UHGV virus genome: UHGV-2171516
Source: a virus
Direction: 5' to 3' (one strand)
DNA length: 10,665 nucleotides
Under the pieces are notes generated by a model, which made no database searches, was not told where the DNA came from, and saw nothing but the letters and a program-made list of their open reading frames with translations. The first letter of the stretch is position 1. Every line of letters begins with the position of its first letter. The translations under genes were made by a program, and so were the position numbers. Positions 1,738-10,665 of the stretch are shown in pieces.

Positions 1738-2706
1738 ATGAAAACAGCAGATGCAGCGAAAGGCCGCTGGCCTGAAATATTAGAGCACTTCGGTCTGCCG
1801 CCGATAACCGGAAAAAATCACTTCAAGGGTGAATGCCCGGTATGCGGTGCACGTGGCAAGTTCCGAATTGACGACCGCGACGGTGCAGGAACGTGGATCT
1901 GTGTATGTGGTAGTGGCGATGGTATGAAACTTGTCACCCTGACACAGGCGAAGCCATTTAACGAGATTTGTACCGAAATAGACCGCCTGATCGGTAATGA
2001 TTACCAACGGGTTAAAATCCCGGTAACCAGCAGCGCCACCAGCTTACGCAAACGGGTATTGAGCAAGTTTTCAAAACTGGAGGCACTGCGTGGTACATCC
2101 GGCGCAGCGTATCTTAATTCTCGTGGAATATTCAGTCTTCCTGCTGAGGCGATCCGGTTCAATGCCAGGCAGAGACACAACGGGAGTGTGTTCCAGTCTC
2201 TTTATTCACTTGCTACGGACGATAAAGGGGAGTTGTGCTATCTGCACCAGACTCTGCTTGATGGTGATAAAAAAGCAGATATCGGTAGCAGTGCAAAGCG
2301 CCTCAAATCCCTGCAGGAAGATAACTATTTGGATCACGCTCGTTCTGTAGCTATCCGCATGTTTCCTGTCGCCAGCACTCTGGGTATCGCCGAAGGCATC
2401 GAAACAGCGCTGTCAGCGCACCAGATTTATAACGTGAACACCTGGGCAACCATTAACAGCGGCTTTATGAAAAAGTTTCGCGTACCAGCTGGTGTTCTGC
2501 ACCTGATTATTTTTGCCGACCGTGACGAGAACAGCGCCACCGGGCTGGCTGCGGCTTGCGAATGTGCTCATGCCAATCTGATGGCAAAGAATGACCTGCA
2601 GCGCGTGAGCGTGTACTGGCCGGATCACGATGATTTCAACAATATGCTCATGAACGGTGATCAGGTTCGAGAGCTGGTTTTCCATAAGAAAAAGGCGGTT
2701 GCGTAA
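1738..2706 (+). CDS. Phage DNA primase (P4-alpha-like zinc-binding ribbon plus Toprim domain)
   Basis: 322-aa ORF. N-terminal CPVCG...CVCG zinc ribbon, Toprim signatures AEGIETALS and FADRDEN (DxD). ATG 1738 follows the helicase stop directly (TAAgATG), suggesting translational coupling. Confidence 0.75.
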   Translation: MKTADAAKGRWPEILEHFGLPPITGKNHFKGECPVCGARGKFRIDDRDGAGTWICVCGSGDGMKLVTLTQAKPFNEICTEIDRLIGNDYQRVKIPVTSSATSLRKRVLSKFSKLEALRGTSGAAYLNSRGIFSLPAEAIRFNARQRHNGSVFQSLYSLATDDKGELCYLHQTLLDGDKKADIGSSAKRLKSLQEDNYLDHARSVAIRMFPVASTLGIAEGIETALSAHQIYNVNTWATINSGFMKKFRVPAGVLHLIIFADRDENSATGLAAACECAHANLMAKNDLQRVSVYWPDHDDFNNMLMNGDQVRELVFHKKKAVA

Positions 2707-3563
2707 TGCGTACTGATAATAACGAACATAAAGCACTATTCACCATCCCGACGGCAGCGTACAGCTCCGCCCTCGCAAACATCAAGCCCCTGCCAGAGCA
2801 ACGGAGAATCACCGGGCATAAGCAGACTGATGCTTATCTTTGGGTGCTGGAGGTTATCCGTCTGAACGAACCCGCACATCTGGATGCTGCTGAGGCTGCG
2901 CTGGTGAAAATTAAAATTTCCCCAAAAGAGGCTCAGGAACGCTATTCGCGTTATCTGCTGGCGAATGGTTACGAACCTTTCCAGGTTGCGTTCGGCATCA
3001 TCGGCATGGATAACCCTGCGCAGGTTATCAGGAACGCCCGGGAGAACATCAAAAAAGCGGCATCAGTCAGGGCTACGTTTGGTAGCTATGAAGCAGCGCT
3101 CGAAGATGTGGAAGCAGAGCGGGTCATCAGGTCTTCCCAGAAATTTATCAACGATCATCTCTGGGGCTGGACTGCGGCAGAGAAAAAAGCCGGAAGCATT
3201 GGCGGCAGCCGCATGAACGAAATTGATGAACAGCGTCGGGCATTTGTTGATGGATATCGCGATGTGCTGCCTGAGCCTTATACGCTGTCTGATGTTGTTC
3301 GCGAGTTCGTTTACTGGGACTGGCTCTACAGTGTTCGCCACACTGCAACTAAAGAACAGGGCGATGAGTTTGGTTACTCTGAGCATCACGAATCGGTATA
3401 TGACCGCGAGCGCTACCTTGAAAAATTGCTGGCAACCATCAAACCGGTGACACGCGCTGAAGCCGTGGAGGTGTGCCGCTGGTTTCTGGCAAGTGGTAAG
3501 GGTGAATGCATGGAAGACGACGGTGCAGCGGTCATTCTCAATCTGGTTGGGGAGTGTGAATAA
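2706..3563 (+). CDS. Hypothetical phage protein, function unknown (sits where the nin region lies in lambdoid phages)
   Basis: 285-aa ORF in codon-like frame. Start overlaps the primase stop (TAATG) and its stop overlaps the next start, so it is part of the coupled operon. No motif I recognise. Confidence 0.6.
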   Translation: MRTDNNEHKALFTIPTAAYSSALANIKPLPEQRRITGHKQTDAYLWVLEVIRLNEPAHLDAAEAALVKIKISPKEAQERYSRYLLANGYEPFQVAFGIIGMDNPAQVIRNARENIKKAASVRATFGSYEAALEDVEAERVIRSSQKFINDHLWGWTAAEKKAGSIGGSRMNEIDEQRRAFVDGYRDVLPEPYTLSDVVREFVYWDWLYSVRHTATKEQGDEFGYSEHHESVYDRERYLEKLLATIKPVTRAEAVEVCRWFLASGKGECMEDDGAAVILNLVGECE

Positions 3564-4378
3564 TGAAGCTTGAGGCATCGCTAAAATACTTCAGTCCTCA
3601 GGGAATGTATATCGGCGACGATGTGAAAGGAACCTCTCCGGAACGTCTTACAGGCACCGATGTTATGGCGGCTATTGGTACCACCAGTAATCGTGAGCGG
3701 TTTGGCCTGGCGGCCTTCTTCGGGAAGGCCGGTATCAGCAAGACTGATGAGCAGATGGCAGTCCAGGCGCTGGCGCGTCACGCGATGGAAATTGCACCGA
3801 AGAATGTGCGTAAAGCAGCTGGTGGTGAATTTGGCTGGTGTATGCTGGTACTGGCTCAGTTTGCTTTTGCTGAGTATTCCCGATCGGCGGCCACCAGCGT
3901 AACATGCCATAGTTGCAGTGGTACCGGACTAACACCCCGTAAGCAGGTCATTCGTAAGGTTTCATACCCATGGGGTAAAGCACCATATTGGGCCAGTCGC
4001 TCCCGTGCTGTTCGACCGTCAGACTGGGAAAGATGGACAGAGGTAACGGAAGTTGTACCAGTCGTTTGCGATGTATGTAAAGGGAAGGGAGTGATAAGTG
4101 CCAGGTGTCGTTGTGGTGGAAAGGGAGAGGTACTGGACCGCAAAGCCACAAGCGAGCGTGGTGTGCCAGTGTTTAAAATCTGCGAGCGTTGTAGTGGAAA
4201 GGGATTCGTATCTATCAAATCAGCTAATGTTCATCGAGCTATTCAAATATACATTCCCGATCTGCACCAGTCTTCATGGTCGCGCAATTGGAAACCATTC
4301 TATGAAAAATTGATTGATATCCTGCATCAAGGTGAGCGGCATGCGGCTAGAGAATTTGAGAAGGCAACGAGTTACTGA
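3563..4378 (+). CDS. Q: Putative late antiterminator Q (phage 82 / QuuQ-like size class) with four CxxCxGxG zinc-finger repeats
   Basis: 271-aa ORF. Last gene before a promoter-like element, a strong terminator and the tRNA cluster, which is the Q position in lambdoid and Stx phages. Four repeats CHSCSGTG, CDVCKGKG, CRCGGKG, CERCSGKG. GGGGAG SD upstream; start overlaps the previous stop. Family assignment is by position and size, not sequence recall. Confidence 0.55.
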   Translation: MKLEASLKYFSPQGMYIGDDVKGTSPERLTGTDVMAAIGTTSNRERFGLAAFFGKAGISKTDEQMAVQALARHAMEIAPKNVRKAAGGEFGWCMLVLAQFAFAEYSRSAATSVTCHSCSGTGLTPRKQVIRKVSYPWGKAPYWASRSRAVRPSDWERWTEVTEVVPVVCDVCKGKGVISARCRCGGKGEVLDRKATSERGVPVFKICERCSGKGFVSIKSANVHRAIQIYIPDLHQSSWSRNWKPFYEKLIDILHQGERHAAREFEKATSY

Positions 4379-4514: not shown

Positions 4515-5459
4515 TTATGGTAAATTTTCCATAAATTTCTTAAATAGTAATTTGTCTTTATTGCTTACAGATTTCTGAATGTTAAGTAATGCACGTAAAG
4601 GTTTAAGGTTTTCTCTTGTTGCAAAAACCCTGGATTTTTCTAAGCGTTCCTGAGCAAAGTTAAAGCGTTCTCTTAATCTTGAAACCTTTATTCCAAAAGA
4701 CAACACCTCTCTTTCAGTCAATTCATCTGGGGTACATTTGTTTAATTTTTCCAGAACCATTTTTATATCTCTTTCATAAAGAAGAGCAATGTCATAATCA
4801 TTCAGCAAGCATTCAGGGTATTGTATTACCCCAATAAGTTCATTTACGGTTTTGTTTTTGTTGTTAACTTTTGGAGCTGAGTCGCTTGTTTGCTTCTGGG
4901 ACATAATTTCGTCCAGTTCTAGCTCTTCTGTATTTTTTAATCTTGAGCGGAAAACACGCCCATCACCAGAAGCAGCCATCTTTTTCAATGTTTGATAAGC
5001 CGCACGCCCGATGATTTTAGGGTCTTTCATGTCAAGTATTCTATGAGCAACCTCAGTTAGTGATGGACGCCCAGATTCGATTTTGGCTTTGAGTTTGTAA
5101 TAGCTAAAAATATCATCTTTTGCCTCTTTAAGTGCGGTAAGTAAGCGATGGAAATCTGCTTTTCGGCAAAGTTCTATTGCTAAATTATCAAATGCTATAC
5201 CAAAAACATTAGTTCCACATACATGGCCGATATTCGTTTCAAATCCTTCTTTCGTAACTACCAGAAATCCCTTTTTATGCCCTTTGCGGCAATTTGATTT
5301 TCCACATGGAATTTCCTCTGGTAGGTCATCGTAGTAACCAAAAACGTCAGAGAGTTGCTGATCATTTAACTCTAATTTGGGATAGTAAGACTCTCTCGCC
5401 TGAATTTCTGCCCAGTCATTCACGCGAATAAAACTTTCGCCATTCTTGAGAAAAATCAT
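4515..5459 (-). CDS. Hypothetical 314-aa protein on the opposite strand; AT-rich moron, candidate accessory or defence gene
   Basis: Long ORF antisense to the phage backbone, visibly AT-rich against GC-richer flanks. Good SD AAGGA about 5 nt before the ATG (reverse complement of 5457-5470). Flanked by an AT-rich upstream region 5460-5580 and the terminator at 4489-4512. Cysteine/histidine cluster CGKSNCRKGH...HVCG; no family recognised. Confidence 0.7.
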   Translation of the reverse strand: MIFLKNGESFIRVNDWAEIQARESYYPKLELNDQQLSDVFGYYDDLPEEIPCGKSNCRKGHKKGFLVVTKEGFETNIGHVCGTNVFGIAFDNLAIELCRKADFHRLLTALKEAKDDIFSYYKLKAKIESGRPSLTEVAHRILDMKDPKIIGRAAYQTLKKMAASGDGRVFRSRLKNTEELELDEIMSQKQTSDSAPKVNNKNKTVNELIGVIQYPECLLNDYDIALLYERDIKMVLEKLNKCTPDELTEREVLSFGIKVSRLRERFNFAQERLEKSRVFATRENLKPLRALLNIQKSVSNKDKLLFKKFMENLP

Positions 5460-5663: not shown

Positions 5664-5740
5664 CCGCCATTAGCTCATCAGGATAGAGCGCCAGCCTTCG
5701 AAGCTGGTTGCGCGGGGTTCGAGTCCTCGATGGCGGTCCA
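5664..5740 (+). tRNA. tRNA-Arg (anticodon UCG)
   Basis: Hand-folded cloverleaf: acceptor CCGCCAT/ATGGCGG, D stem GCTC/GAGC, anticodon stem CCAGC/GCTGG with loop CTTCGAA, T stem CGGGG/CCTCG (one G-U) with loop TTCGAGT, discriminator T plus CCA. 77 nt. Confidence 0.75.
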
Positions 5741-5754
5741 TTTATCGGCATTCT

Positions 5755-5831
5755 GCGTTGTTAGCTCAGCCGGACAGAGCAATTGCCTTCTAAGCAATCG
5801 GTCACTGGTTCGACTCCAGTACAACGCGCCA
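5755..5831 (+). tRNA. tRNA-Arg (anticodon UCU, argU/argO-like)
   Basis: Hand-folded cloverleaf: acceptor GCGTTGT/ACAACGC, D stem GCTC/GAGC, anticodon stem ATTGC/GCAAT with loop CTTCTAA, T stem ACTGG/CCAGT with loop TTCGACT, discriminator G plus CCA. 77 nt; resembles E. coli argU. Confidence 0.85.
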
Positions 5832-8372: not shown

Positions 8373-8409
8373 AAAAAAAACCGCCAGCGGCAGAAACGGA
8401 AGCTGGCGG
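8373..8409 (-). terminator. Rho-independent terminator oriented for the minus strand, just 3' of nanS-p
   Basis: A8 run 8373-8380, then 8-bp stem CCGCCAGC / GCTGGCGG with a 13-nt loop. On the minus strand this is a hairpin followed by T8; there is no T tract on the + side. Confidence 0.45.
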
Positions 8410-8506
8410 AGGTAATCCCAATGGAGAATGTAAAGAAAAGATGCTTTCGTATATCGGTTTTTTAAATGAAAACAGTTCTCATTGTCAACCATAACGGTAA
8501 GAAACT

Positions 8507-8701
8507 ATGACATTTGTTCATCAGGTGATGCTGTACTTCTGTACGGCGGTCTGTGTGCTGTATCTTCTTTCGGGTGGGTACAGGGCAGTGCGCGATTTCT
8601 GGCGCAGGCAGATTGATAAAAGGGCCGCAGAGAAAATCAGCGCCAGTCAGTCAGCCGGAGCAAAAACAGAAGCCCCACTCATTCCGGAACAACCTTCTTA
8701 A
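8507..8701 (+). CDS. Small hypothetical membrane protein (64 aa, one predicted transmembrane helix)
   Basis: ORF with hydrophobic stretch VMLYFCTAVCVLYLLSGGY and a charged C-terminus. Weak SD (GGTAAGAAA). Sits between nanS-p and the holin. Confidence 0.4.
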   Translation: MTFVHQVMLYFCTAVCVLYLLSGGYRAVRDFWRRQIDKRAAEKISASQSAGAKTEAPLIPEQPS

Positions 8702-8726
8702 TAACCCCTTTCAACGAGAAAATCCT

Positions 8727-9017
8727 ATGTCAGAAATAAAATCGCTGGTCACTGCTGAGGCAGTGAAGGAAGTCCTGCGCTCTGAAGAAGTCCGGAGCGC
8801 ACTGAAACAGCAACTTCGGCAGAACCTTGAGGCGCGTCTTGATGCAGAAGTGGATTCAATTCTGGATGAATTGCTTGGTGCACAGCCGGAACCATCCCCG
8901 GAACTGCTTCCGGAACCACAGGCGGAAGATGTCACCACGGAAAATGGTGATATTCAGCCGGAGTCACCGGTGACGGATATGACAGACACACAGCCAGAAT
9001 CGGGCACAATGCTGTAA
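8727..9017 (+). CDS. Hypothetical acidic protein (96 aa) with Pro/Glu-rich C-terminus
   Basis: In-frame ATG at 8727 within track ORF 8553..9017; the longer 154-aa form overlaps the previous ORF and lacks an SD. Followed by a terminator-like hairpin at 9028-9060. Confidence 0.45.
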   Translation: MSEIKSLVTAEAVKEVLRSEEVRSALKQQLRQNLEARLDAEVDSILDELLGAQPEPSPELLPEPQAEDVTTENGDIQPESPVTDMTDTQPESGTML

Positions 9018-9027
9018 CGGTGAGTCA

Positions 9028-9060
9028 GGGTCATCAGTAAAGAGCTGGTGGCCCTTTTGT
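9028..9060 (+). terminator. Terminator-like hairpin upstream of the holin
   Basis: 10-bp stem GGGTCATCAG / CTGGTGGCCC (two G-U pairs) with loop TAAAGAG, followed by TTTTGTTGTTG. Confidence 0.4.
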
Positions 9061-9092
9061 TGTTGTGAGCTTCCGAGTACGGGAGACGGGGT

Positions 9093-9308
9093 ATGTACCA
9101 GATGGAAAAAATCACAACAGGTGTGTCATACACCACGTCAGCGGTGGGAACGGGCTACTGGTTCCTGCAGTTGCTGGACAGGGTTTCCCCGTCTCAGTGG
9201 GCGGCAATAGGCGTGCTGGGGAGTCTGCTGTTTGGGCTGCTGACATATCTGACGAACCTGTATTTCAAGATTAAAGAAGACCGGCGTAAGGCGGCGCGGG
9301 GAGAGTAG
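9093..9308 (+). CDS. S: Class II holin (pinholin), phage 21 S-like, with dual-start motif
   Basis: 71-aa ORF strongly resembling the phage 21 S holin as I recall it ([21 protein letters not shown]...[21 protein letters not shown]). Met1 and Met4 (MYQMEK) fit the antiholin/holin dual start. SD GGGAG upstream. Confidence 0.9.
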
Positions 9309-9311
9309 ACG

Positions 9312-9821
9312 ATGAATAAACAATACGAACTGGTTGTTAAAGGGATAAATAATTACCCGGATAAGATTACTGTTACTGTAGCGCTGGAAACGGGTGGGTA
9401 TACGTCACTGTTGTTGCCAAATGTGGTGATTGATCTTGATCGTGTTGAAGGTGCCCCGCTGGAGTTTTACGAAGCTGAGGCGAAAAAGAAGGCGAAGCAG
9501 TTTTTCATGGATATTGCTGCCGGGTTATGTGAAGGGGATGAACAGTCACAGGAAAAGTGCCTTTGTTCCGAAGATCGGTATACCATACAAATTAACAATG
9601 CATATAACACGATACTGTCAGAAAAAGATGATATCGAATCACGCATTGAAAAACTGGAGAATTGCGTCGTTGAACTGAATAAAAAACTGTCGACGCTGAT
9701 GCCTTCTGAAGATGCAAAAAAACGCCGCGATGAGCAGTTCGCGGCGTTTTACGATTATTGCATTGAAGTTACTCGCAGGAATTTTGTGAAGGCTTTTGAG
9801 GAGAGTAAATCTCTTCAGTAA
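9312..9821 (+). CDS. Hypothetical 169-aa soluble protein inserted between holin and endolysin
   Basis: ATG 4 nt after the holin stop, with SD GGGGAGAG (9298-9305) lying inside the holin 3' end. AT-richer than the flanking lysis genes. No transmembrane segment; coiled-coil-like stretch SEKDDIESRIEKLENCVVELNKKL; no family recognised. Confidence 0.6.
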   Translation: MNKQYELVVKGINNYPDKITVTVALETGGYTSLLLPNVVIDLDRVEGAPLEFYEAEAKKKAKQFFMDIAAGLCEGDEQSQEKCLCSEDRYTIQINNAYNTILSEKDDIESRIEKLENCVVELNKKLSTLMPSEDAKKRRDEQFAAFYDYCIEVTRRNFVKAFEESKSLQ

Positions 9822-10029
9822 GCTTAATGGCGGACGCTGCAATTAATTCAGGAAGGTCCGCAAGGTCATCTGTCAGTGGGAATGATGAAAAATCGGCGGC
9901 AGTTCTGTTAAGAATTGCTTTAACTAATTCCTTTTCCTCATCCGGCAACACGTTGATTAGAGCTACGACTGCTTGCCTGAGTGCGATTAAATCAGCAAAA
10001 GTTTGTTTTGGTAGATTTGGATAATCCAT
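9769..10029 (-). CDS. Hypothetical small acidic protein (86 aa from the internal start), convergent with and overlapping the 3' end of 9312-9821
   Basis: Track ORF 9769..10101 on the minus strand. I prefer the internal ATG at 10029 (MDYPNLPK...) because it has an SD (GAGGTGA) while the 10101 start has none. The 3' end overlaps the + strand ORF by about 53 nt. Could be spurious. Confidence 0.35.
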   Translation of the reverse strand: MDYPNLPKQTFADLIALRQAVVALINVLPDEEKELVKAILNRTAADFSSFPLTDDLADLPELIAASAIKLTEEIYSPQKPSQNSCE

Positions 10030-10140
10030 AGTCACCTCTGTGTTTATCAGATTGACATACCCTGGCCAGTGCCCACCACTGGCGGGGTGAAGGCTTAACA
10101 TATCCAGGGATTCGGAACCGATAAATCCTGATAAATATCC

Positions 10141-10665
10141 ATGAACGCAAAAATCAAATACGGCCTGTCAGCTGCTGTTCTGGCGCTGATTGCTGCAGGC
10201 GCGTCTGCTCCTCAGATACTTGACCAGTTTCTGGACGAAAAAGAGGGTAACCACACAACGGCATACCGTGATGGTGCAGGTATCTGGACCATCTGCCGTG
10301 GTGCCATCATGGTGGATGGCAAACCTGTCGTTCCGGGCATGAAGTTGTCGAAGGAAAAATGCGACCAGGTTAACGCCATTGAGCGTGATAAAGCGCTGGC
10401 GTGGGTGGAGAAAAACATCAGAGTGCCGCTGACCGAACCCCAGAAAGCGGGGATCGCGTCATTCTGTCCGTACAACATTGGTCCCGGTAAGTGTTTCCCG
10501 TCGACGTTTTACAGACGAATTAATGCTGGTGATCGCAGGGGAGCATGCGAAGCGATTCGCTGGTGGATTAAGGACGGTGGCAGAGACTGCCGTATTCGCT
10601 CAAACAACTGTTACGGTCAGGTATCCCGTCGCGACCAGGAGAGTGCGCTGGCGTGCTGGGGAATT
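10141..10665 (+). CDS. R: SAR endolysin (phage lysozyme, T4/P1-Lyz-type catalytic E-D-T), 3' end beyond the window
   Basis: Open frame from ATG 10141 to the window edge (175 codons, no stop), so absent from the ORF track. N-terminal signal-anchor-release segment YGLSAAVLALIAAGASA, then catalytic spacing E...D...T in EGNHTTAYRDGAGIWTICRG. In-frame stop at 10132-10134 fixes the start. SAR endolysins pair with pinholins. Confidence 0.85.
   Translation, partial: MNAKIKYGLSAAVLALIAAGASAPQILDQFLDEKEGNHTTAYRDGAGIWTICRGAIMVDGKPVVPGMKLSKEKCDQVNAIERDKALAWVEKNIRVPLTEPQKAGIASFCPYNIGPGKCFPSTFYRRINAGDRRGACEAIRWWIKDGGRDCRIRSNNCYGQVSRRDQESALACWGI

Follow-up and report, generated by a model that had tools for sequence, protein, structure and literature searches.

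A variable slot between the S21-type holin and endolysin genes of lambdoid prophages, with a YdfR-family gene and a convergent 86-residue partner as one of its alleles

The virus genome UHGV-2171516, of which a stretch of 10,665 nucleotides (nt) was analysed here and is called the window throughout, carries an insert at positions 9312–10140, between the gene for an S21-type holin (S) and the gene for a phage lysozyme of the signal-arrest-release (SAR) type, the endolysin (R). The insert holds a plus-strand gene of 169 amino acids (aa), a member of the YdfR/DUF1327 family, and, facing it, a minus-strand gene of 86 aa. Our comparisons identify it as an allele of a hypervariable cassette slot, which in most E. 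coli lambdoid prophages separates the gene for the S21-type holin from that for the endolysin. The slot is anchored on the left by the holin-coupled DUF1327 N-terminal domain (N-domain) and on the right by some 76 nt abutting the start of R; between these anchors the C-terminal part of the YdfR-family protein and a convergent cargo gene are swapped as blocks, with at least six unrelated cargo genes. The presence of a gene with the YdfR N-domain between S and R is known; the C-terminal module (C-module) with its 86-aa partner, and the architecture of the hotspot, are apparently undescribed. The literature that could be searched yielded no account of the C-module in its fused form, of the conserved pair of convergent genes, of the junction element that the cargo classes share or of a hotspot with several cargos. 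An original prediction, made from the letters of the window alone, had proposed an undescribed module of two genes. Both genes proved to be conserved and are uncharacterised, and novelty held for the C-module with its partner and for the hotspot, but the N-terminal half of the 169-aa protein is standard YdfR and belongs to a known family.

Results

The original prediction assumed that R normally follows S directly, which was not borne out for S21-type cassettes of E. coli. Among 71 IMG/VR loci seeded with the holin, S and R are adjacent with no gene between them in 12 (17%), whereas a gene with the YdfR N-domain occupies the gap in 49 (69%) and a holin-coupled protein consisting only of the C-module does so in 10; the gap measures 1–1316 nt. 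With these proportions, an occupied S-R gap is the normal state of E. coli prophages and no exotic insertion. The order S-YdfR-R is annotated in many phages as well as in K-12 and B strains, and in the Qin prophage of K-12 it reads essQ-ydfR-rrrQ. Across 5426 complete E. coli genomes, the S21-type holin was found in 2435, at 8846 places, and DNA of the DUF1327 N-domain (nt 1–250 of the insert) in 2704, with up to eight copies each; the 86-aa gene is rarer and was found in 314. The N-terminal half is therefore a standard part of the cassette, a finding that the original prediction had itself named as one that would tell against it.

In the window, the layout of the two genes agrees with what had been predicted. 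The holin gene (PF04971, E 7e-33; PHROG holin) is of S21-type class II, the pinholin family, and ends with TAG at 9306–9308. The 169-aa open reading frame (ORF) begins with the ATG at 9312, 3 nt past this stop codon, and its Shine-Dalgarno sequence lies inside the holin gene; a coupling of 3–4 nt is common to all related loci. The convergent ORF, predicted at 86–110 aa with a 3' overlap of about 53 nt, is present as described. Both genes are richer in AT than their flanks, with a GC content of 0.429 for the insert, 0.546 for the holin gene and 0.541 for R, and this contrast with flanks of 0.54–0.55 is the compositional mark of a moron. The features are as follows.

9093..9308, plus strand: holin gene, left neighbour of the slot (PF04971, PHROG)
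9300..9305, plus strand: GGAGAG, Shine-Dalgarno sequence of the YdfR-family gene, within the holin gene at its 3' end (visible in the sequence itself)
9312..9821, plus strand: YdfR-family gene, 169 aa, stop codon included (PF07041, PHROG 2091)
9312..9557, plus strand: DUF1327 N-domain, aa 1–82, conserved left anchor (Pfam, AlphaFold2)
9528..9629, plus strand: probably disordered linker, aa 73–106, of the 'CLCSED-RYTIQINN' type (AlphaFold2, predicted local distance difference test score, pLDDT, below 50)
9633..9818, plus strand: C-module, aa 108–169, predicted helical hairpin or coiled coil with the motif KKRRDEQFAAFYDYC and a tail ending in KSLQ (AlphaFold2)
9769..9821, both strands: tail-to-tail overlap of the coding sequences, 53 nt
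9769..10029, minus strand: convergent 86-aa gene, cargo of the slot (PHROG 2572, homologues, AlphaFold2, frame tests)
10033..10038, minus strand: GAGGTG, Shine-Dalgarno sequence of the 86-aa gene, 3 nt before its ATG at 10029
10065..10140, minus strand: 76-nt junction element between the cargo gene and R, the right anchor, also the leader of R on the plus strand
10065..10083: hairpin GCCAGTG-N5-CACTGGC at the start of the cargo-specific sequence
10097..10102, minus strand: candidate -10 hexamer TATGTT, 17 nt downstream of TTTATC
10120..10136, minus strand: two direct repeats ATTTATC, 10 bp apart (on the plus strand GATAAAT at 10120–10126 and 10130–10136)
10120..10125, minus strand: candidate -35 hexamer TTTATC, within the proximal repeat
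10141..10665, plus strand: R, SAR-type phage lysozyme, right neighbour of the slot, running off the end of the window (PF00959, 3e-24; PHROG endolysin)

As had also been predicted, neither gene of the insert encodes anything like a holin, endolysin or spanin. The peak Kyte-Doolittle mean over 19 residues is 1.08 for the 169-aa protein and 1.64 for the 86-aa protein; the latter value falls in helix 1, which has D, R and Q among its residues and forms the core helix of the modelled three-helix bundle. No convincing transmembrane segment was found in either protein by Kyte-Doolittle values or in the soluble folds given by AlphaFold2 (AF2). Neither protein matches a PHROG of the lysis category, and no SAR, signal or lipobox feature of a lysis protein was found. 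The 169-aa protein is not a holin, antiholin or spanin.

Sequence and position both place the 169-aa protein in the YdfR/DUF1327 family. Residues 1–80 match DUF1327 (PF07041; E 2e-34) with 118 bits where 25 would suffice, PHROG 2091 covers the full length (1e-84), and public collections hold proteins that are 98–99% identical to it. With these matches, and that of the minus-strand ORF to PHROG 2572 (8e-50), both ORFs are far beyond chance. The ratio of non-synonymous to synonymous differences (pN/pS) is 0.32 in the frame of the 169-aa ORF, and its shadow frame is closed. The model of the N-domain comprises three beta-strands and a helix (E5-14, E18-27, E38-43, H50-73; pLDDT 66–88), and that of the C-module two helices (H108-129 and H133-168). 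The family is a mosaic in which the conserved N-domain is followed by one of two linkers, the type seen in the window or the alternative 'RPIILEAQNVWITYKGKLPGRITG' of other members, then by a coiled-coil stretch bearing the motif KKRRDEQFAAF(Y/D)DYC and finally by a variable C-terminus, either the short tail ending in KSLQ or the long extensions of the 263–329-aa forms.

Several loci, cited here by their labels in our collection, bear on this mosaic. In L166, L170, L184, L145, L146 and L173 the protein in the gap lacks DUF1327, starts with MNHEEMNQRFSRLENEIAELNKKLS..KKRRDEQFAAFDDYC and is coupled directly to the holin stop codon; it consists of the coiled-coil C-module alone with extensions. 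Because such proteins exist directly after the holin, we regard the C-module as an independent domain. The product of ydfR in K-12 MG1655 (b1555; L144 5555–5866), the YdfR of the published RNase E work discussed below, aligns at 83% identity with residues 1–99 of the 243-aa form found in L142, and for this reason K-12 YdfR looks like a deletion derivative that has lost the C-terminal part and the partner.

Annotation of these genes also needs correction, since the Prokaryotic Genome Annotation Pipeline (PGAP) calls intact long YdfR alleles truncated pseudogenes ('incomplete; missing C-terminus') and keeps only the DUF1327 part, and since convergent genes are omitted from several phage records. 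The mis-called alleles include those at L090 11001–11246 (169 aa) and L143 3499–3834 (183 aa; AS19, E. coli B type), both of which are complete ORFs with a conserved C-module; L090 (NZ_CP058571.1) is 100% identical to window positions 9312–10140. In the Stx1a phage Stx1_14040 (L004, 2754–3455, minus strand) and in L007–L015, an unannotated minus-strand ORF of 210–233 aa overlaps the final ~250 nt of a 263-aa YdfR variant; no Pfam, PHROG or PADLOC match was obtained for it. Judged from this arrangement, the long YdfR tail of L004-type loci may result from the YdfR frame reading through the strand antisense to the cargo gene.

The 86-aa gene is, on its frame and conservation, very probably real. 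The minus-strand ORF as a whole extends over 9769–10101 and encodes 110 aa from its first ATG; the conserved form has 86 aa and starts at 10029. The match to PHROG 2572 takes in just residues 25–110 of the longer form, and homologues begin at MDY, and we dropped the 110-aa form on these two grounds. The 86-aa protein is acidic (pI 4.3) and is modelled as an amphipathic three-helix bundle (H8-26, H30-48, H56-74; pLDDT 70) with a disordered tail. Homologues at 38–48% identity stand in the same gene arrangement as in the window, with indels that are in-frame only. In this family, which comprises proteins of E. coli and Salmonella prophages, all public names read 'hypothetical protein'.

It could be objected that the minus-strand ORF is non-coding, its transcript being an antisense RNA that damps leaky expression of the holin and endolysin, or that the real gene is the 65-aa plus-strand ORF at 9827–10024, which lies in the shadow frame. 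In no lineage is that shadow frame closed, and its pN/pS of 0.38 is similar to the 0.44 of the 86-aa ORF, values that cannot separate the two since their wobble positions coincide. A minus-strand transcript would moreover be fully complementary to the late mRNA, and the support from codon usage is weak: the 86-aa frame is the best of six in four lineages, by a margin of 0.03–0.08 bits per codon. The codon positions, however, speak for the 86-aa frame. Three distant comparisons gave differences at positions 1/2/3 of 32/23/39, 37/25/41 and 28/21/38, so that position 2 changes least and position 3 most in all distant pairs. The start codon and a Shine-Dalgarno sequence are kept in all lineages (types 2 and 3, described below, have AAGGA there), and the length of the minus-strand gene stays within 86–93 aa, whereas the shadow ORF ranges over 59–115 aa and has no conserved start. 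The conservation of the protein across lineages and the confident three-helix model argue the same way, and the covariance models of Rfam 15, run against 8400–10665, gave no match at E up to 1. On codon positions, start and Shine-Dalgarno sequence, codon usage and constant length we therefore prefer the minus-strand ORF, and consider a non-coding or shadow origin very improbable.

Some apparent relationships were set aside. The match of the 86-aa protein to TPR-CHAT proteins (P0141, P0142) is a helical-repeat resemblance, and the other convergent ORFs, of 87 and 104 aa, were rejected as its distant homologues with an hhalign probability below 1%. The label 'DUF1823' in PhiR12 phage records was also rejected, its score being 15.5 bits (E 0.02) where the cut-off is 25.

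The C-module and the 86-aa gene occur as a pair. All YdfR alleles that end in KSLQ (169, 176, 183 and 211 aa) are followed by a convergent gene of 86–88 aa with an overlap of 53 nt, and the tail module, the N-domain and R are all present in 89 of 98 loci with the 86-aa gene; the remaining loci are on cut contigs or have tails too diverged for detection. Two further types were found beside this type 1 of E. coli, both with an overlap of 59 nt. In type 2 (L142, L086) the YdfR protein has 243 aa and a tail ending in KFLQELKLSQQE, and the partner has 89–93 aa and 38–41% identity. Type 3 belongs to Gifsy-like prophages of Salmonella enterica, in which the hairpin is a stand-alone gene of 73 aa after the spanin gene, whose stop codon its start overlaps; the order is holin_8, holin_3_7, GH19 endolysin, DUF2514 spanin, the 73-aa gene, a convergent 93-aa gene and the terminase genes. 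BLASTP aligns 62 aa of the 73-aa protein with the C-module of the window at 31% (E 3e-5), and the alignment stays colinear to both C-termini. From this arrangement we infer that the small protein moves together with the hairpin module into a different lysis cassette, without DUF1327. In the overlap, the last helix of the C-module is encoded together with the predicted disordered tail of the 86-aa protein. The C-module (pN/pS 0.26–0.48) and the partner (0.44–0.54) are both under purifying selection. A scan of genome contigs returned E. coli only, and the pair is also found in a Qin-like prophage of strain AS19-RrmA-, apparently a laboratory strain of E. coli B type, where its presence would make testing easy.

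On the right side of the slot, the conserved junction element precedes each of six convergent, mutually unrelated cargo genes, and similarity between the cargo classes stops directly behind the hairpin. The other cargo classes, which stand behind other YdfR C-termini, encode proteins of 87–91 aa (PHROG 18136), 90–94, 104 (PHROG 1853), 105–116 and 210–233 aa, with no credible match in Pfam or PADLOC; each class has its own Shine-Dalgarno sequence and an ATG 92–128 nt from the conserved block. The ATTTATC repeats are invariant columns in E. coli types 1 and 2 and in Salmonella type 3, and the position and spacing of the candidate -10 hexamer are kept in all lineages (TATGTT or TATTGT). In Salmonella loci without an adjoining R the repeat block is nearly invariant, with the coding sequence there at ~76% nt identity. 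In one cargo class (L151) the hairpin at this position is another one, AGCCTG..CAGGCT. Folding of the 72-nt leader gives a z-score of just -1.3. As its sequence and placement suggest, the junction element is probably the promoter/operator and 5' leader of the convergent cargo gene.

The direct repeats at 10120–10136 (on the plus strand GATAAATCCTGATAAAT) presumably resemble the boxes of OmpR/PhoB-family regulators, with one mismatch per half-site; we offer this as a lead only. Direct repeats of that family include the CpxR box GTAAA-N5-GTAAA and the PhoP box TGTTTA-N5-TGTTTA.

A role in defence or anti-defence, which the original prediction had also raised, found no support in PADLOC, Pfam, NCBIfam, PDB or fold searches. 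The best match of the 169-aa protein in PADLOC-DB 2.0 was PDC-S11 (E 0.003, 14.9 bits), and there was none for the 86-aa protein. Searches of Pfam and NCBIfam revealed no toxin-antitoxin domain, and the convergent arrangement of the genes is not that of a type II toxin-antitoxin system. Sequence searches of the PDB gave nothing, AcrIIC4 at E ~0.8 being noise, and the fold searches gave no match for either protein. No toxin or immunity domain was detected in the proteins of the slot.

Discussion

We tentatively favour a composite reading of the insert, which we hold to be possible and by no means assured: a late YdfR protein and a lysogen-expressed 86-aa gene that are functionally linked. The 169-aa protein would be made late and at the same pace as the holin, its holin-coupled gene being part of the Q-dependent transcript of the late operon, and would act in the cytoplasm through its DUF1327 domain, by which it would be linked to RNase E or RNA. 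The 86-aa gene would be transcribed from the conserved element adjoining R, against the late operon, and would be on mainly in the lysogen and shut off by converging late transcription and antisense pairing. Such reciprocal expression would follow from the cargo gene facing the late transcript. The hairpin module and the 86-aa protein would serve the same process, probably by mutual binding, a link that is favoured by the conserved pairing, and the result would be a pair that is ON in lysogeny and OFF in the late phase. The original prediction had placed the expression of both genes at the moment of lysis. To judge from its position this would suit the plus-strand gene, but not the 86-aa gene, which is antisense to late transcription and has an upstream element of its own.

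The suggested link to RNase E comes from K-12 YdfR, which binds the N-terminal, catalytic half of RNase E in two-hybrid and co-purification experiments (Göpel et al. 2026, PMC13232886). The interaction surface for RNase E lies within residues 1–72 of YdfR, and Strep-tagged YdfR co-purifies with RNA (PMC13232886). This protein of the Qin prophage (PF07041, 103 aa) is of the same family as aa 1–80 of the window protein (39% identity, E 4e-22), shares with it the motif EGAxLEFYEA, and is encoded in the same place, after a gene for an S21-type holin and before a lysozyme gene. It differs in having neither the hairpin C-module nor a convergent partner; ydfR there overlaps rrrQ by 4 nt. If the DUF1327 domain of the window behaves like K-12 YdfR, the phage would have a protein that contacts RNase E in the late phase.

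A number of observations weigh against the composite reading. Binding to RNase E is reported just for K-12 YdfR, at 39% identity, and overproduction of that protein changed few transcripts (PMC13232886). The overall pLDDT of the AF2 models (62 for the 169-aa protein, 70 for the 86-aa protein) means moderate confidence. In Salmonella the alleles are shuffled, a C-module of 70% identity occurring with a partner of 100% and a C-module of 94% with a partner of 75%, so there is no allele-specific co-evolution of the kind seen in a tight cognate pair; and since the physical overlap forces joint inheritance, co-occurrence alone does not prove a functional link. At the junction, the candidate -35/-10 pair agrees with the consensus at 7 of 12 positions and would be a weak promoter, one that fell below the threshold of a consensus promoter scan, which called nothing at the element; a terminator scan found none for the minus-strand gene. 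Part of the conservation of the element may also serve R, because it is kept in L002 and L161, which have no cargo.

Among the alternatives, the 86-aa gene could be an independent moron, expressed in the lysogen and with no tie to YdfR, the overlap being a consequence of tight packing. We consider this unlikely, though it deserves serious attention: six unrelated cargos use the same slot and upstream element, the insert is AT-rich, alleles of the C-module and partner recombine freely, the core of the C-module occurs in many variants without an 86-aa partner, and the overlap encodes just the predicted disordered tail of the 86-aa protein. An untied moron does not readily account for Salmonella, however, where the partner has been relocated with a complete, separately initiated and spanin-coupled C-module gene when ~59 nt would suffice, and where this 73-aa gene is under purifying selection. 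Nor, cut contigs aside, is there any locus that has the 86-aa gene and lacks the C-module. A toxin-antidote or defence module, in which one product would be harmful or phage-blocking and the other would neutralise it (as addiction, or as defence with a late antidote), is in our view improbable. Two small genes that are always inherited together, one of them for an acidic helical protein as many antitoxins and inhibitors are, at a hypervariable prophage hotspot, would look the part, but credible matches in PADLOC, Pfam and NCBIfam are missing, the genes are convergent and not co-transcribed, and the alleles recombine without co-divergence. Overproduced K-12 YdfR did not arrest growth either, although K-12 YdfR is without the C-module.

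A regulator of lysis timing, already suggested in the original prediction, is the other reading that the position invites: the YdfR protein, alone or jointly with the 86-aa protein, would set the moment of pinholin triggering or of SAR endolysin release. The YdfR gene is translationally coupled to the holin, as is the protein made of the C-module only, and in E. coli as in Salmonella the pair is always part of a lysis cassette or closes one. The K-12 ydfR gene was a hit in an envelope-integrity screen (cited in PMC13232886), a hit that could be a polar effect on neighbouring genes. We nonetheless think this role quite unlikely, given that neither protein has a membrane segment or any similarity to known lysis regulators, and that 17% of the cassettes, like phage 21, work without a gene here. 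In Salmonella, furthermore, the pair accompanies the unrelated holin_8, holin_3_7 and GH19 proteins, so that any effect on lysis cannot be specific to the pinholin.

Returning to the composite reading, it can be taken further. The S-R junction might be home to a family of two-gene switches, ON in lysogeny and OFF in lysis, each built from one regulated promoter near R, interchangeable cargos and matching YdfR C-modules that turn the cargo off or redirect it. We regard this extension as a long shot; were it true, the cargos would possibly be prophage defence or host-control factors with a late antidote, tied through DUF1327 to RNase E.

Known systems resemble the insert in part. Small AT-rich genes placed opposite the late operon, beside the lysis genes and at variable positions, are familiar from lambda bor and other late-region morons of lambdoid phages; Bor is a lipoprotein of known role, and such morons are expected to be expressed from the prophage. 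Unlike Bor, the 86-aa protein lacks a signal and a lipobox, and expression of its gene from an element of its own is putative; unlike bor, the cargo is enclosed by the lysis cassette, runs tail to tail into a late gene and has its upstream element in common with five other cargo types. T4 RIII and P1 LydB are soluble lysis-timing factors, small cytoplasmic proteins encoded beside, or co-expressed with, the holin. The window pair is like them in being small, cytoplasmic and associated with a holin, but shows no homology to them, and pairs of the window type also accompany the unrelated holins of Salmonella. Protein regulators of RNase E include RraA, RraB and RapZ of the host and gp0.7 of T7, Srd of T4 and Dip of phiKZ, to none of which the window proteins have sequence or fold similarity. 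With polymorphic toxin-immunity loci the slot shares a conserved N-domain, swapped C-terminal modules and, for every C-terminal variant, a small linked gene of its own. In contrast to those loci, the small gene is convergent and not downstream on the same strand, and the shuffled alleles of C-module and partner in Salmonella do not co-diversify.

YdfR-family genes are present in about half of all sequenced E. coli, frequently more than once per genome, within the lysis cassettes of Shiga toxin (Stx) and other lambdoid prophages. The view of the junction as a hotspot, with fixed anchors, a shared element and at least six cargos, provides a handle on prophage genes of unassigned role.

Additional observations

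The right end of the window is a lambdoid late region, with the Q antiterminator gene at 3563–4378, two tRNA-Arg genes, an esterase of the SASA/NanS-p type and then DUF1378, DUF826, the holin and R. The tRNA-Arg pair lies on the plus strand between the Q and esterase genes, at 5664–5740 and 5755–5831, with the anticodons TCG and TCT; phages of the Stx type usually carry tRNAs downstream of Q. Between the DUF826 and holin genes there is a terminator-like hairpin with a T-run (9027–9055, plus strand; 12-bp stem TTTGTTGTTG), through which Q-modified polymerase would presumably read. Two ORFs near Q have no Pfam match, one of 285 aa before it (2706–3563, plus strand) and one of 314 aa between it and the tRNAs (4515–5459, minus strand). 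Where the window has this 314-aa ORF, strain EC2 has different genes, including one for a nucleoid-associated protein, and the position may, on this comparison, be another variable spot. In a Salmonella prophage that carries the stand-alone pair (L229), a pertussis-toxin S1/scabin-like ADP-ribosyltransferase is encoded at 1500–2225, between the Q and holin genes, and looks like an ArtA-type cargo at the position equivalent to stx.

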